Below are positions 9,001 to 15,000 of a stretch of 56,403 bases of DNA, in pieces (position 1 is the stretch's first letter; each line of letters begins with the position of its first letter). This DNA comes from Candidatus Woesearchaeota archaeon CG10_big_fil_rev_8_21_14_0_10_33_12. Its GTDB lineage: Archaea; Nanobdellota; Nanobdellia; Woesearchaeales; CG1-02-33-12. The stretch lies in NCBI GenBank assembly GCA_002762865.1, contig PCYE01000026.1, positions 1 through 56,403 of the forward strand, given 5' to 3'. A program made the position numbers.

Positions 9001-12000
9001 AAGATTTCTTTGTGATTCGCCAACTGAAAATGATTTCTCTGTTCTCAACTTTTTAAAAGCTGCTGATAATTTTTCTTTTCTTTCAATTTCCACAGGATTT
9101 ATTTCTAATTCAGAATTAGGAGGCAGAAATGAACCTGTAACACCAATTTTTTCTCGCAAATACCTTAAAAACTGTTCGTTTTCAAAAGGTTCTACTACAT
9201 TACCATATTCTGGATTAACTTTAAATGTAAAACTTTCTTCAGTTTTTGGACAATAGTCTAAAAATTCATCAGTTGTTAGTTGCATATTTAATTATAAATT
9301 TAATTCATTTATAAAGTTTACTATTTTAAAGTAAGTAAAAACTATGACACCCATCTGATTTTCAGCAGTAAGAAAACCCTCTGGATTTGCTTCATAAATC
9401 CATGCCATGTTGCACTCTCGTTCCGCTACGCTTAACTCAGGTCAGCTAACAGGAATTCCTTGGTTAAGAATTTTAAGTCACAAACTAAAATAAATTAAAT
9501 TACCTTCTTTATTTTTGAAACTTTTTAATCTAAAACAGGAAAAGTTTAAATAATAATCAATTAATTTTATTAATAATGATAATGAAAGATATAATTTGGA
9601 TGTCTGTTTGGACATTGGGTTTTTTTGCAACAGGTGTATTTTTATTCTGGGAGGGGATTAAACTATTAAAGCAAAAGCGCCTGATAGAAAATATTCCTAC
9701 AAGCAAGATAAGGTCTCTTGCAATGGGTTTGGTTGAGATTTACGGAGAAGTTGTTCCTGCATATGAGGAGCTACTGAAGAGCCCTTTCTCAAACAAGGAT
9801 TGTGTTTATTATAGCTATATAATAGAAGAATACCGCAGCTCTGGTAAGAGCAGCAGCTGGGTTACTGTTGATGCAGGGCGTAAAGAACAGCCATTCTACC
9901 TAAAAGATAATACTGGCGGAGTTCTTATTGATCCAAAGGGAGCAAATATAAATGTTTCAAGAGATTTTGAGTTTAACCCTGGTTTTGGCAAAAAAACCCC
10001 TGATGCAATAATAAACTTTCTTAATGCAAACGGCATGAGTCACAAAACACTCTTTGGATTCGGAAATAAGACTATGAGGTATAAGGAATATTTTATTGCT
10101 CCAAAAGATAAGCTTTACATAATGGGCACTGCAGCAGACAACCCCTTTGTTGAGGATGGTACAGCAAAGGATAATGTAGAAGATGTGATGATACAGAAGG
10201 GCAACAATGAAAAAATATATTATATATCAGACAAGCCTGAGAACACATTGTTAAAGGAAATAAAATGGAAAGTGTTGGGTTATATGATTGGAGGGGCATG
10301 CTTAAGCATAGCAAGCTTAATCATAAGTTTTAAATACATGTTTAATCTGTTATAAACATAAAGGGAGGTATTAAAATGGGATTTGGAACAATAATAATAA
10401 TTTTTGTGGTAGTTGCTTTTGTAGTTTTTGCAATAATAGCTTACATAGTAGGAATGTTTAACAGCCTTATAAGGCTCAAAAACAATATCAAAAAGTCATG
10501 GGCAAACATCAATGTGCTTTTGAAGCAGAGATCAGACGAGCTTCCAAAGCTTATAAACTCTGTAAAAGGATATATGACGCATGAGAAAGATACTCTTGTA
10601 GAGCTTACAAAGGCAAGAACATCTATGCTAAATGCAAAGACAATGTCAGAGAAGGCAGATGCTGACAATGCAATAAGCAGTACACTTAAAACAATATTTG
10701 CAGTTGCAGAGAATTATCCTAACCTAAAAGCAAATGAGAACTTTATGCAGCTTCAGAACAGGATAAGCGGGCTTGAGAATGAGCTTGCAGACAGGCGGGA
10801 ATTCTACAATGACAGTGTAAATACATACAACATAAGAATACATTCTTTTCCTGACATGATTATCGCAGGGAGGATGAAATATACAGATGAAGAGATGTTT
10901 AAGGTTTCAGAGGAAGACACAAAAGATGTTGAGGTAAAATTCTAAAATCTTTATTTAATTTATTTTTATGATTTTATTTAAGCTGTCTATGCTTTTCAAC
11001 AGTGAAAACTTTGTTTCAGAATGCTTTTTATCTATTTTGTCTAAGATGTTTTTAATTTCTCTTCTGTTTTTATCTTTCTTTATTCTCTTTTTGAACTTAA
11101 ACTTCTTGGCGATAAATAAAAATTACCCAGCGATGGCTTTTTCGATTTACCTTTAACATTCCAATTCTCTTATAAATATTTACCTAAAGCTTCTGCGACG
11201 TACAAAGGTATTTCGGGGCCAAGCTTCTTATCAAAGGTGATTTTAACACTAACTCCTCCTTTTAAATACACTCCTCGATATACGCCAAAGTGGAGGTGAG
11301 GATATGTAGCAAAACCAACCTGGCCACTTAAGGCTATAACTTGTCCCCGCCTTACCTTTTGACCATTTTTCACCTTAATTGAACGGTGTTTAAGATGAAC
11401 ATAGACACTACTTTCTCCATTGGTGTGGCGGATAACTACAAAGTTTCTTCTTCCTGCAAATTTAGGAGATTTGTATGATCGCTTATATCTATCTTGACAA
11501 GTAATTACCGTTCCTGAACGAGCAGCTACTATCGGTGTTCCTTTAGGCAAAAGAAAATCTATACAAAATTTTAAATGTCGTTCTGTCTTATGAGCTGGCG
11601 CCTCAATTCTAAGAATATTGTCTTGAAATGGTATGGAGTATTTCGTATTCTTTTTTATTATTTTAATTAAGTTGTCTATGCTTTTCAACAGTGAAAACTT
11701 TGTTTCAGAATGCTTTTTGTTTATTTTGTCTAACATATTTTTGATTTCTCTTCTGTGTTTATCTTTCTTTATTCTCTTTTTGAACTTAAACTTCTTGCAT
11801 TTTGCAAATAGTAGGCATTCGCTCTCAAGGACATTTCTCAAAAGCTTGATGTAAAAGATCTCGTCTTGGGTGAAATGGCCCAAAAACTTAAAGTCTCCTC
11901 TTTTAAACAGATTTTCAGTGAAATAAATTATTTCATCATCCAAATTCCATGGAATTATAACCTGTTTTATCCTGTTCTTTTTTATGATTTCTTTTGTTTT

Positions 12001-15000
12001 CTCGCTTAAAGGACCAATCTTAAGTGCATTAACCTTAACTTTCAGCAAATCAATCCTGTTATTGTATGCAGCCCTTATTATATGCTCTGAGATTCTTGAC
12101 TCCTTGCTGTTGTTATCAAGTAAAAGAATCTTTTCCTTCTCATTGATAAGCTTTTTTGACCTTATCTCTTTTTTGACTCTTTTTTCAATAAGTTTGCAGA
12201 AACAGGCTTTGCATAATTTTAAGCTAAGGTAAGGAAGTTTTATTTCCCCGTTGGCCTTTTTGCATTTCTGGCATAACATGGTTTTTAAGGCGTTTAAGGC
12301 ATTTAAAAAGTTATTGATTTCAGCTTTTCCCGTCTATAAACATGGTTTTTAATTGTGTTACTACTCAAGAATCCTTAAAAACCGAAAGCTTTATATAGTA
12401 GTTACATTATACAGTAATTAGAAGCAGGTTTGGGGGTGTTTGCCTATATATTTATTTTCAACTATCACCTCTTTTTCCTGGGATTGGGGCTTCGGCTCCT
12501 ATCTCAGGTTTATAATCACCTCTTTTTCCTGGGACTGAAGCTTCGGCTTCATTCCCGGGTTTCATAATCACTAATTCTAAATAACTTGTTGATTACTAAA
12601 TACCATAGATTGAAAAATCCAAAAGTTTATATACTAATACTTCTCTAAGTGGTATTAAGGTGGTATAAATGGAATTTAAAAAAATAACAATATCCTTGCC
12701 AAAGAACCTATACAATGAAAGTATGCATTTAGTTAATGGCGGTTTGTTTTCTAATTTAAGTGACTTAATTAGAACAGGAATCAGAGAAGAACTTAAGGAA
12801 TTAAGGCAACTAACTCAAGATTTCGATGAAAGATTTATTTATAGTGATAAAAAATTAATTTCTGGGGTAAAGCAAAGTATGAAAGAAGCAATAGCTGGAA
12901 AGGGAAAGATTTTGAAATCTGATAAAGAGATGGATAAATGCTTTAAGGATTTATAAGAATGGAATACAAAATAAGATTTACTCCATTTTTTGAGAAGCAG
13001 TTAAAGAAACTAAAAAGAAAAGACAAAAACCTGTTTGATAGGTTAACAAAGAAGTTAAAAGAAATAAGACAAAATCCAGAGCATTATAAACCTTTAAGGA
13101 ATGTATTAAAGGGCAATAGAAGAGCACATCTTGATCCATTCATTATTATCTTTGATGTAAAGGAAGATTTGATAGCTGTTCATTATGTAAAGAATCATGA
13201 CAAATCTTATTAAATTTTTATAGTCTTTAAAAGAAATTATCTGTTAATCTTGATAAACAATCCTTGCTCTTTTTTTCTTCTGAACAGCAAAAGCCCTAAC
13301 AAAAGCCCAATTAAAATCCCTAGTATAAGCACTGAAAGAAAGCTTTTGTCAATATAAATCATAGGTGTTTTTTTACTATTATCAAAATAAATGTCGAGAT
13401 TGCTTAACTCAAGGGCATATTCTGCATACAGCAAAGCAGAGTATTTATCATCATCCTTAAGGCTTTTTGCATATTCATAATAAGAATATCCGATTATTGG
13501 AAAGAGCCCTCTTTTGCTTGTCTCAGCAATGTTTCTTCCGACAATCTCCAACTTCTTGTTCAGTAGGTCATCAACATGCTCTTCCTCAACTCCCAATGTG
13601 GAAAGTATAATATCTGACTCTGCCTTTGCCTTGCTTGCCTTAAACAGGCAAAGATCATAATTCTCATCTTCCATATCAGAATAAGCAAGGTCTATCTCTT
13701 TTTTTGTATCAGCAAGAAAATCTGGAAAAAACAGCATTACATACTGGTAGCGCTCCTCTGCCTCTAGTATTTTTGTTATGCAGGAGCTCTTTAAAACCTC
13801 TTTATTAAAATCAAATTTTTCTCCTTTGTTATTAAAGAATTCACTCCATGCCTTTGCGCTGTAAAACCTTTCAATAGCATATGCTAAAGAGCCAATGCTT
13901 TCATTTATTTCGCCTTTGCCAAGCTGCTCCTCGCTTAAGTCAATGTAATCCTCTGATTCTATAAGCCTCTCCTTGACCACAGCATATGTCTGCAAATCAG
14001 TTATTGTTTCATACTTAAATGGCAGCCCTGAATCAAAATCTTTTATCTCATCGCGTGTTGATTTGATTTTTTCCGCTATATCTTTTTTCTTCATATCCTG
14101 CATTAAAAATATAAGCTGTTTGTATTTTGTATTTGCGCCAAAGCAGAAGCTTGCAGCAGAATAGAGCGTGTTTTTATTAAAAGCAGCTTCTCCTTTTTCG
14201 GTCAGGTTTTTTGCATTTTCCTCTATTTGGATAAGGTTTTCGTCCAACTCACCTGTTTTTAATTTTTCAAATTCCTCTTTTAATGCATAACTTTTGTTGC
14301 ATAATCTTTCTGCAAGAATTTTCATAATGCCTGAATATTCATCGCTGATTTCAAGGCTCTCATTTTTTATTTCTTTTTTCTTGCCTGTAAATTCATATAA
14401 AACATCATCAAGATCAGAAACCTCAACAACGCTTATACTTTTTTCATTGCCATATTCAACCAAATCAATTGTCTTATTATCCTCTTCCTTTAAAAATCTC
14501 GTGCCTGCAGGTATTAGCACTTTTTTGATTTTTAATTCTGAGGCAGCGTTTATCTTTTCCTTAAGCCCTCCAACTGGCCCGATAATCCCTCCGGAGTTTA
14601 TTGTTCCTGTTATTGTTATGTCTTCATCTAAGTTTATGTTTTCAAGCATTGCAACTGTCAGTGCAGATATTGCAGCACCAGCGCTTGGGCCGCCTATGAT
14701 AGATGAATCTGCCCTTATTGTATAAAAGAAATCATAATTATCACAATTAACATCAGCATATTTGCATGCTATTTCCCTTGCAAACCTTGTTGATATCTGC
14801 GTATCTAATTTTGTTAGGGGGTATGTTTCAATAAAGACCCTGCCAGTTCCAGGGGTTATCTCAAGATAAAGATGAGCAGAAGAGCCTTCATAGCCATCTT
14901 TTGTCTGGCTTACAGCAAGTAAAGGCATGTGGCCAACCCCGGCATAGCAAACAGGTGTAATAAATAGGAAGATTAATGTTAATAGAAACACCTCTTTTGA

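Follow-up and report, generated by a model that had tools for sequence, protein, structure and literature searches.

The window analysed here, a 56,403-nucleotide stretch of contig PCYE01000026.1 from Candidatus Woesearchaeota archaeon CG10_big_fil_rev_8_21_14_0_10_33_12, contains an open reading frame in which a catalytically dead paralog of the tRNA thiolases TtuA and NcsA is followed in frame by an M23 peptidase domain (Table 1). A 20-row profile of the paralog matched PhTtuA and MmNcsA with E values of 4e-17 to 7e-17. The AF2 model of the domain (pLDDT 96) was matched by Foldseek to TtuA/NcsA at TMq 0.70–0.80 (E 1e-11 to 1e-9), and stand-alone homologs of 205–213 aa were found. The domain is a real TtuA/NcsA paralog, which agreed with the genome-wide survey's note; this had described a paralog of about 210 aa with a CxxC-CxxC finger and a lost PP-loop, and the four cysteines, the altered loop and a fold match at TM 0.8 all bear the description out.

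Table 1. Features of the paralog locus, with positions in the window.
Feature	Position	Strand	Evidence or remark
Open reading frame, 369 aa	12279-11170	-	First 210 aa are the dead TtuA/NcsA paralog domain
TtuA/NcsA paralog, catalytically dead; 210-aa domain	11650..12279	-	Profile, fold, stand-alone homologs
N-terminal zinc finger of the paralog, C3-C6...C23-C26	12202..12273	-	Sequence
Degenerate PP-loop, NNSKES instead of SGGKDS	12097..12114	-	Profile alignment to PhTtuA
PWNLDDE, degenerate form of GHNLDDE without its His but with D114/E116	11932..11952	-	
C-terminal helices, residues 175-210, predicted dimer interface	11650..11757	-	Complex model and conservation
M23 peptidase domain, in-frame fusion to the paralog	11170..11649	-	PF01551, E 2e-21
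151-nt direct repeat, copy within the paralog gene	11647..11797		93% identical to 10958-11108
Orphan second copy of the paralog 3' end, with ancestral C-terminus and stop	10958..11108	-	Ending as in unfused relatives
Lon_C/S16-type protease gene, conserved upstream neighbour	13237..15012	-	PF05362
PLD-family gene, conserved downstream neighbour, displaced here by inserted genes	6849..7853	-	PF13091
Topoisomerase IA; close relatives have it upstream of the Lon-type gene	15039..17189	-	

The paralog retains the fold, the N-terminal finger, a basic first helix and the dimer helices. It has neither the catalytic CxxC nor the third cluster cysteine, as the segment with the Fe-S cysteines is deleted, and because the domain stops after the dimer helix the C-terminal zinc finger is absent as well. 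None of the 63 aligned paralogs had a CxxC beyond residue 45. The N-terminal finger showed a weak match to TtuA_LIM_N (E 0.016, under the cut-off), and its cysteines accounted for the three best-conserved columns of the 63 paralogs; S196, L197, K199 and S200 were also conserved in this alignment. Identity within the family was low (mean column identity 24%) and the median net charge was +16. The pattern scan was run on the 20-row alignment, as the 63-row alignment was too variable.

The fusion to the M23 peptidase, which had been put down to a recent insertion, was confirmed by the presence of PF01551. Its recency is supported by the 90% cluster of the window protein, which also includes an unfused 175-aa M23 protein and an unfused 210-aa paralog. 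One contig of run X1 spanned the joint, and the fused form had several database members; outside the window protein's own 90% cluster no M23 fusion was found. The fusion is recent, population-level and incidental and left the whole paralog domain intact; its confinement to this one cluster led us to reject it as a part of the mechanism. In the order the paralog lay mostly between a Lon-type protease gene, found near 47 of 76 paralogs, and a PLD gene, found near 53. No recurrent tRNA-gene neighbours were detected in 73 loci of its own order, and the genes of the paralog and the active enzyme were unlinked. In the sister-order family f130, a ThiI/NFACT-R gene adjoined 4 of the 12 dead copies.

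The dead copy was present in 76 of 121 genomes of the order, 69 of which also had the active gene. Of 103 enzyme-bearing genomes, 34 were without it, and a clean gap was seen at the Lon-PLD slot in 11 of 30 examined; together these show the paralog to be dispensable. The absences were not explained by missed paralogs, as a broader profile added 8, and downstream of Lon no match better than E 0.9 was found in 30 loci, 5 of which were too short to judge. In six genomes, three of them 94–98% complete, a dead copy was present but no enzyme was found. These were discounted as a sign of a separate role, since relatives of one (G053) do have the enzyme and in another (G021) a finger-like sequence was weakly matched where a contig ends. 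In f130 the dead copy and the enzyme occurred in the same 12 of 40 genomes, on different contigs or far apart, and the other 28 had neither. All 39 dead rows from the two orders grouped together (SH-aLRT 94, on 146 columns with long branches). Separate origins of the dead copy in the two orders were set aside, as a single clade was not rejected (p-AU 0.28, on the same 146 long-branched columns).

The active enzyme of the source genome (contig C38, 9286-10155) begins 31 aa ahead of SGGKDS and, as had been noted in the survey, has no N-terminal finger; it retains the PP-loop, the three cluster cysteines and the C-terminal finger. The PP-loop and cluster cysteines were invariant in 105 of 105 active enzymes, for which a quick tree was used, and the N-terminal finger, by consensus, was mostly CxxC..CxxH. 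The earlier label of NcsA for this enzyme was not upheld by any curated cut-off: it scored 147 of 500 bits with the NCBIfam NcsA equivalog model and 199 of 450 with the TtuA model, missing both, and TtuA was the top NCBIfam model for paralog and enzyme alike. At the NcsA-type second-shell positions E88, R94, R149, R241 and E267 the source-genome enzyme has P, S, K, R and L, and is thereby of the TtuA type at three of the five diagnostic positions; the majority residues among the 105 enzymes were E (60), R (58), R (83), R (100) and L (77). A separate TtuA-like clade was present beside the main enzyme in three genomes, with a score of 407 bits in one (G114). The source genome encodes a single active family member and Elp3; neither MnmA nor a TrmA-type (U54) methylase was found there. 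By elimination, then, U34 is the likely base modified by the C38 enzyme.

Modelling of the paralog with the active enzyme gave a complex score of 0.88, compared to 0.02 for the best of three controls, with runs agreeing in 100% of contacts and a partner pLDDT of 87. The mark for this score was reached by 116 of 157 solved pairs and by 2 of 215 mismatched pairs; the pass may derive from the solved TtuA and NcsA homodimers. The tightest modelled contacts were made by the most conserved C-terminal residues of the paralog outside the finger, and the finger itself lay outside the interface. The modelled interface was symmetric, so that self-pairing is also possible.

Comparison of active enzymes with and without a dead copy revealed a signature in the predicted interface. 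Positions 234 and 238 of the enzyme, both within it, ranked 1 and 2 of 270 columns in separating partnered from solo enzymes. A small residue was found at position 234 in 2 of 65 partnered enzymes versus 17 of 33 solo ones, and at position 238 in 12 of 65 versus 20 of 33; the matching paralog positions were small in 58 and 50 of 63 respectively. In the sister order a small residue at 234 occurred in 0 of 15 partnered and 4 of 4 solo enzymes. About three clades underlie this signature; 16 of the 33 solo enzymes lacked a small residue at 234, and Asn occupies the matching position in PhTtuA. A Ctu2-like heterodimer of the dead paralog and the active enzyme is predicted as likely. Of the proposal that the paralog is a heterodimer partner, the co-occurrence in f130, the complex score and the interface signature support the core, and the possible influence of solved homodimers on the model qualifies it.

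It had also been claimed that the dead copy supplies the finger lost by the enzyme, on a contrast of 8 of 11 against 5 of 18 genomes. This contrast was not reproduced: over 102 genomes the enzyme finger was lost in 28 of 69 with the paralog and in 13 of 33 without (p = 1), and none of 18 ways of counting gave a p value under 0.07. An independent-pairs test found 3–4 supported pairs (p 0.5–1), too few for significance to be reachable. What did stand was a one-way tendency: loss of the whole N-terminal segment was accompanied by a dead copy in 39 of 44 cases over both orders. These were 24 of 29 in the paralog's own order, against 45 of 72 other enzymes (p 0.06), and all 15 in the sister order; there, the 4 of 4 enzymes that keep a hairpin had no dead copy that could be found. 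Finger loss therefore looks like a later consequence of the dead copy's presence.

The stricter form of the claim, that the dead copy is kept in order to provide in trans a finger that the enzyme has lost and needs for tRNA binding, draws on these segment losses, on the conservation of the finger cysteines and on the clade of the source genome, in which 25 of 26 paralog-bearers lacked the enzyme finger versus 9 of 16 genomes without the paralog. It appears unlikely, given the lack of an overall association, the position of the finger outside the modelled interface, and the distribution of fingers: 30 genomes had one on both proteins and 5 pairs had it on neither, 16 paralogs were themselves without it, 12 finger-less enzymes had no paralog, and 8 of the 29 own-order enzymes without the segment had no finger-bearing dead copy. 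Just 3 of the 12 f130 dead copies kept the cysteines, the others keeping a Cys-less hairpin. We consider it improbable that the paralog acts independently of the thiolase, pairing with itself through the dimer helices and serving the topA-Lon-PLD cluster as a scaffold or by binding nucleic acid. A Lon-type or PLD gene lay in the fetched flank of 63 of 76 paralogs (both in 37), and the symmetric interface, the high charge and the six genomes without a detected enzyme would fit such a role; however, Lon and PLD remain adjacent after loss of the paralog, the sister-order dead copies track the enzyme with neither neighbour beside them, and the active enzyme differs in some of its residues according to whether the paralog is present. 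The dead copy might instead inhibit or tune the enzyme it binds, either by disabling half of the dimer or by directing the enzyme to U54 or to different tRNAs. The binding and co-occurrence evidence would serve this explanation equally well, the paralog is dispensable in a third of enzyme genomes and the target base is not fixed, but dependence fits better with the 12 f130 genomes, all of which keep the dead copy though their enzymes are missing the N-terminal segment as well as a portion of the turn that joins the dimer helices; we give the inhibitor or tuner a small chance. That the gene is a decaying pseudogene or an assembly artefact, as the M23 fusion, the flanking 151-nt duplication and the low family identity might suggest, is highly improbable, and for the family as a whole it is refuted by the conservation of motifs and of gene position and by open frames of 140–240 aa across dozens of families, with 101 representatives at E<1e-30; the fold is confident and the fused form recurs in databases.

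We therefore favour, with a probability of roughly two in three, the reading that the gene encodes a dead TtuA/NcsA paralog which serves as the non-catalytic partner of the C38 enzyme in a heterodimeric tRNA 2-thiolase, likely acting on U34. The paralog is predicted to dock by its C-terminal helices onto the one active family member through the same symmetric helix interface. It would replace the second protomer and may help to hold the tRNA by its finger and basic helix; with it in place, the active subunit in many lineages would have been free to shed its own N-terminal segment, making finger loss a consequence of the paralog and not the reason for its existence. We put forward more tentatively, as something that may well not hold, that a Ctu2 of their own evolved in Nanoarchaeia, a dead subunit of minimal size that makes the U34 thiolase an obligate heterodimer with one composite tRNA site. 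To this site the dead subunit would contribute the N-terminal finger or hairpin, and the enzyme its active site and its C-terminal finger; whole lineages would have been locked in by deleting the enzyme finger and half of the enzyme's dimer surface, and others would have reverted to a homodimer.

Published work presents archaeal U34 thiolation as the task of one homodimeric NcsA and the active/dead heterodimer as a eukaryotic step. In PMC10067955 the role of Ctu2 is open, recombinant Ctu2 not having been obtained soluble; PMC7138817 does not discuss fingers or dimers. No description of a dead archaeal NcsA/TtuA paralog was found in the literature searched, which did not extend to subscription papers such as the original TtuA structure papers. 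Like Ctu2/Ncs2, the partner of Ctu1/Ncs6, the paralog is a dead thiolase copy that lacks the cluster cysteines and keeps the zinc-finger site, and its place in the complex model is that of the second protomer of an NcsA-type dimer, as modelled for Ctu2 (PMC10067955). Unlike Ctu2, which is required in vivo, it is not universally required, and it has only 140–240 aa, having lost the C-terminal finger together with the middle part that binds ATP. No CTU2 Pfam was among the 25 of 30 families listed for the 63 paralogs at E<=0.05, the other five matching one member each. Ctu1 keeps both fingers (PMC10067955), whereas many active partners here lose the N-terminal one, which places the finger swap outside the eukaryotic parallel. 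Archaeal NcsA (M. maripaludis, PDB 6scy; H. volcanii) shares the fold (TMq 0.78), N-terminal finger and dimer helices with the paralog, and E88/R94/R149/R241 with most members of the partner enzyme family; it is, however, a homodimer that suffices by itself and has a PP-loop as well as five CxxC/H motifs, of which the paralog has the first two only. The m5U54 thiolase TtuA (P. horikoshii, T. thermophilus) gave the top fold matches (TMq 0.80) and the top family model, but the score was well below its cut-off. Trm61/Trm6 is another active/dead heteromer among tRNA enzymes. The replacement of a homo-oligomer by a duplicated and diverged pair is also seen in ADAT2/ADAT3 and Sen, and is described in PMC10067955 as a eukaryotic trend, whereas the present case concerns small-genome archaea.

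Many small-genome (DPANN) archaea carry a shrunken dead thiolase copy, the predicted partner of the functional enzyme. If true, this would parallel Ctu1/Ctu2, the same active/dead split having arisen outside eukaryotes, with natural intermediates that have both fingers, a finger on the dead subunit only, or a solo enzyme. An archaeal Ctu2 counterpart of 150–210 aa would allow what a dead subunit does to be tested directly, and a widespread family now labelled hypothetical would gain a likely function.

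As the genome-wide survey's note had stated, the 210 aa that open a fused ORF form a dead TtuA/NcsA paralog; the genome measures 1.05 Mb (33% GC, 93.7% complete). Homologs of 205–213 aa without the fusion are common (54 matches among 805 candidates, 50–85% identity); among 51 loci, the titles of named protein relatives are Woesearchaeota, Nanoarchaeota or Nanoarchaeia, and many others bear the depositor label 'uncultured Methanosarcinales'. A 20-row profile of the paralog matched PhTtuA and MmNcsA (E 4e-17 to 7e-17), and in this alignment NNSKES replaced the PP-loop SGGKDS and PWNLDDE aligned with GHNLDDE. 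Alignment of 63 paralogs revealed that the segment bearing the catalytic CxxC is deleted, as are the third cluster cysteine and the C-terminal finger; none of the 63 had a CxxC after residue 45 or an HNLD. Conservation was strongest at the retained N-terminal finger cysteines, the basic first helix (E32, R34, K36, K37, R40), D114/E116, E154 and S196–S200. The AlphaFold2 model from the 63-row alignment (pLDDT 96) had TtuA and NcsA as its top Foldseek ranks (TMq 0.70–0.80). Paralog representatives at E<1e-30 numbered 101 in a library-wide search, whose top 150 matches spanned 126–268 aa, and the nearest Atlas clusters were hypothetical proteins of Nanobdellota. The fourth-ranked cluster (310 members) holds 182-aa TtuA_LIM_N proteins, most often of Methanobacteriota, from which short dead copies may occur in other archaeal phyla.

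Features of the window, of contig C38 and of loci in other genomes
Feature	Position	Strand	Remarks
Fused ORF, 369 aa	window 12279-11170	minus	first 210 aa, weak TtuA_LIM_N match (E 0.016); then M23 peptidase domain (E 2e-21)
Insertion, 689 nt	window 10958-11797		fused M23 to paralog
Direct repeat, 151 nt, 93%	inside fused gene and window 10958-11108		repeats paralog 3' end
topA – Lon_C/S16-type protease – dead paralog – PLD-family gene	window 6849-17189		gene order conserved across order (63/76 loci)
340-aa ORF	window 8263-9285		no Pfam match
GIDE-domain and LemA genes	window 9576-10945		family-specific insertion between paralog and PLD
Two 48-nt direct repeats, 83%	window 12464-12562		hairpin-like core, upstream of paralog; one copy skipped by contigs in two runs
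RHH antitoxin-like and ParE/RelE-type toxin pair	window 12669-13213		inserted between Lon-type gene and paralog; RHH gene in three close relatives, absent from others
Active enzyme	C38:9286-10155		only intact family member in genome
ThiI-like gene with short PP-loop part	L001:2241-3077 (C38)		two genes from active enzyme
Cysteine-desulfurase-like ORF	C38:1366-2517		by motif only
Dead copy in genome G088	L195:2-601		far less diverged (SQNLDEE, KPLY kept), adjoins finger-less enzyme, outside Lon-PLD slot; may be a recent, independent duplication
ThiI + NFACT-R_2 gene, family f130	L316:2434-3393		adjoins dead copy in 4/12 f130 loci

The M23 fusion is recent and left all 210 paralog residues intact, which agrees with the insertion described in that note. 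The outer repeat copy bears the ancestral C-terminus, and in close relatives the paralog lies directly ahead of LemA or PLD, with M23 absent. The 90% cluster of the fused protein has 18 members; the 15 listed include fused 369-aa forms, an unfused 210-aa paralog and stand-alone 175-aa M23 proteins starting over the joint sequence. An M23 from a Patescibacteria record (P0232), >90% alike, is in the same cluster, with recent transfer and mis-binning as candidate readings. The joint was bridged with zero differences by one contig of sequencing run X1, which may be the source sample.

The active enzyme starts 31 aa ahead of its PP-loop and, as had been reported, lacks the N-terminal finger; it retains its C-terminal finger and all three cluster cysteines. 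It did not reach the curated cut-offs for TtuA (199 of 450) or NcsA (147 of 500). At the five sites that differ between NcsA and TtuA (PMC10067955, section 7) it has P, S, K, R and L, three of which are TtuA-type; the majority residues of 105 enzymes of the order are E (60), R (58), R (83), R (100) and L (77). Gene content points to U34 as its likely target, since Elp3 was over the cut-off and neither MnmA nor a TrmA-type methylase (detected in 2/5 genomes tried) was found in this genome. A separate TtuA-like clade comprised three rows of the order tree, each from a genome also holding the main enzyme. Second TtuA-like enzymes, candidates for U54 thiolation, were seen in five genomes (L032, L108, L060, L375, L376); in genome G114 the match to the TtuA model reached 407 bits, and a TrmA-type methylase is also encoded there. 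PMC7337903 treats the Nanoarchaeum TtuA homolog and m5s2U.

Across 121 Woesearchaeales genomes, one per genus, loci found with the 20-row profile, the TtuA family model and a 63-row profile were fetched and read; the finger was scored by pattern, with G084 and 8 late additions judged by eye. Dead copies were present in 76/121 (59 with finger, 13 without, 3 weak without, 1 contig-end fragment) and the enzyme was detected in 103/121. With absences rechecked, 69 genomes had both, 34 the enzyme only, 7 the dead copy only (one of them, G021, also shows a weak finger-like match where a contig ends) and 11 neither. No TtuA/NcsA enzyme was found in 11/121 genomes of this order nor in 28/40 of the sister-order family f130; in both sets U34 thiolation may be absent or done by another enzyme. 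The position of the paralog is conserved in the order, with a Lon-type neighbour in 47/76, a PLD gene in 53/76 and either in 63/76 (flanks mostly 1–1.5 kb). Lon and PLD remain adjacent where the paralog is lost: Lon loci were read in 30 of the 34 paralog-less genomes, and 11 of the 30 showed Lon then PLD with nothing of the paralog between, so the losses there are real. One of the 11, the unpublished genome G112, also has one of five fully finger-less solo enzymes (those in genomes without a dead copy) and contributes a single row to the 102-genome and position-234 counts below; its omission shifts each by one.

The note had further proposed a Ctu2-like heterodimer. A complex model of enzyme and paralog, with a separate alignment for each chain, scored 0.88 in three runs vs 0.02 for the best of 3 controls (contact agreement 100%, partner pLDDT 87). 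The score mark was met by 116/157 solved vs 2/215 mismatched pairs, counts that apply only roughly here, and because TtuA and NcsA homodimers are already solved the pass may reflect likeness only. The modelled interface is symmetric, paralog 124–127 and 175–210 against enzyme 151–160 and 213–249, with the paralog finger outside it. Enzyme positions 234 and 238, the counterparts of paralog S196 and S200, were compared after the contacts had been seen: a small residue occupied 234 in 2/65 partnered enzymes (dead copy in the genome) vs 17/33 solo, and 238 in 12/65 vs 20/33, and these columns ranked first and second among 270 enzyme columns in separating the two sets. The solo signal is carried by about three clades, 16/33 solo enzymes are not small at 234, and PhTtuA has Asn at that position. 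In the paralog, small residues were found at 196 in 58/63 and at 200 in 50/63. The pattern fits one dimer face of the enzyme, as modelled, having been handed over to the dead subunit.

Other orders of the class likewise hold short dead copies (5 cases, the enzyme in every one). In 49 genomes of the sister order (that of G170), family f130 had the dead copy in 12/40, the enzyme in exactly these 12 and neither in 28, and genus g182 had both in 6/7 and neither in 1/7. The two genes were on separate contigs or distant from each other, and these dead copies showed neither Lon nor PLD alongside; a single clade of the dead copies from both orders was not rejected (p-AU 0.28), and they may or may not have arisen separately. 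Each of the 15 main enzymes of this order in which the N-terminal segment is missing is accompanied by a dead copy, with the finger kept in 4 and a Cys-less hairpin in 11, and no dead copy was found for the 4/4 enzymes that keep the hairpin. A small residue at enzyme 234 was present in 0/15 partnered vs 4/4 solo (one row by eye), and the turn between the dimer helices is shortened in the f130 enzymes aligned. With the f130 co-occurrence and columns 234 and 238 in its favour, we put the probability that the paralog works like Ctu2, as the dead second subunit of the predicted heterodimer, at roughly two in three.

A stricter version, in which the paralog is kept to supply the finger lost by the enzyme, was the core of the earlier claim. 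Complete loss of the N-terminal segment leans to genomes with a dead copy (24/29, 21 with finger, vs 45/72 of segment-keepers, p 0.06), as do the 15/15 of the sister order. However, among the 102 genomes whose enzyme N-termini were read (that of G002 is cut), the finger was lost in 28/69 with the paralog vs 13/33 without (p=1), and none of 18 counting schemes gave p <0.07. The finger was on both proteins in 30 pairs, the paralog only in 23, the enzyme only in 10 and neither in 5, so it can disappear from both members; from these counts the paralog predates loss of the finger by the enzyme and is not dependent on that loss. Losses are concentrated in one 43-row clade including this genome (SH-aLRT 100; quick tree of the enzyme core, finger excluded). 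Leaving out G014 and the three TtuA-like rows, the finger was absent there in 25/26 paralog-bearers vs 9/16 solo (p 0.003, kin not independent) and outside in 3/42 vs 3/16; only 3–4 independent pairs were available, too few to reach significance. As the finger also lies off the modelled interface, strict supply is unlikely. The sister-order pattern is the best support both for the partnership and for a softened form, in which it suggests that the dead copy supplies the hairpin segment, not necessarily zinc.

The paralog falls outside the Ctu2 sequence family and is not an active TtuA/NcsA either. PMC10067955 describes a single NcsA in archaea, as the note had it, and terms heteromers a eukaryotic trend. 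There, Ctu2 keeps finger sites and lacks cluster cysteines, as do most paralogs for the former and the paralog for the latter, whereas Ctu1 carries both fingers, unlike the C38 enzyme without its N-terminal one. PMC4048286 gives five CxxC/H motifs and ascribes RNA recognition to GHxxDD, and PMC6225789 extends the role of Ncs2 beyond catalysis, with tRNA recognition unsolved. PMC7138817 gave no match for fingers or dimers. No report of a dead archaeal NcsA/TtuA paralog was found in the literature, subscription papers lying outside coverage. In Woesearchaeales the dead paralog would act as a second, non-catalytic subunit beside the active enzyme; finger supply would plausibly be a step added later in some lineages, and not the core of its role.
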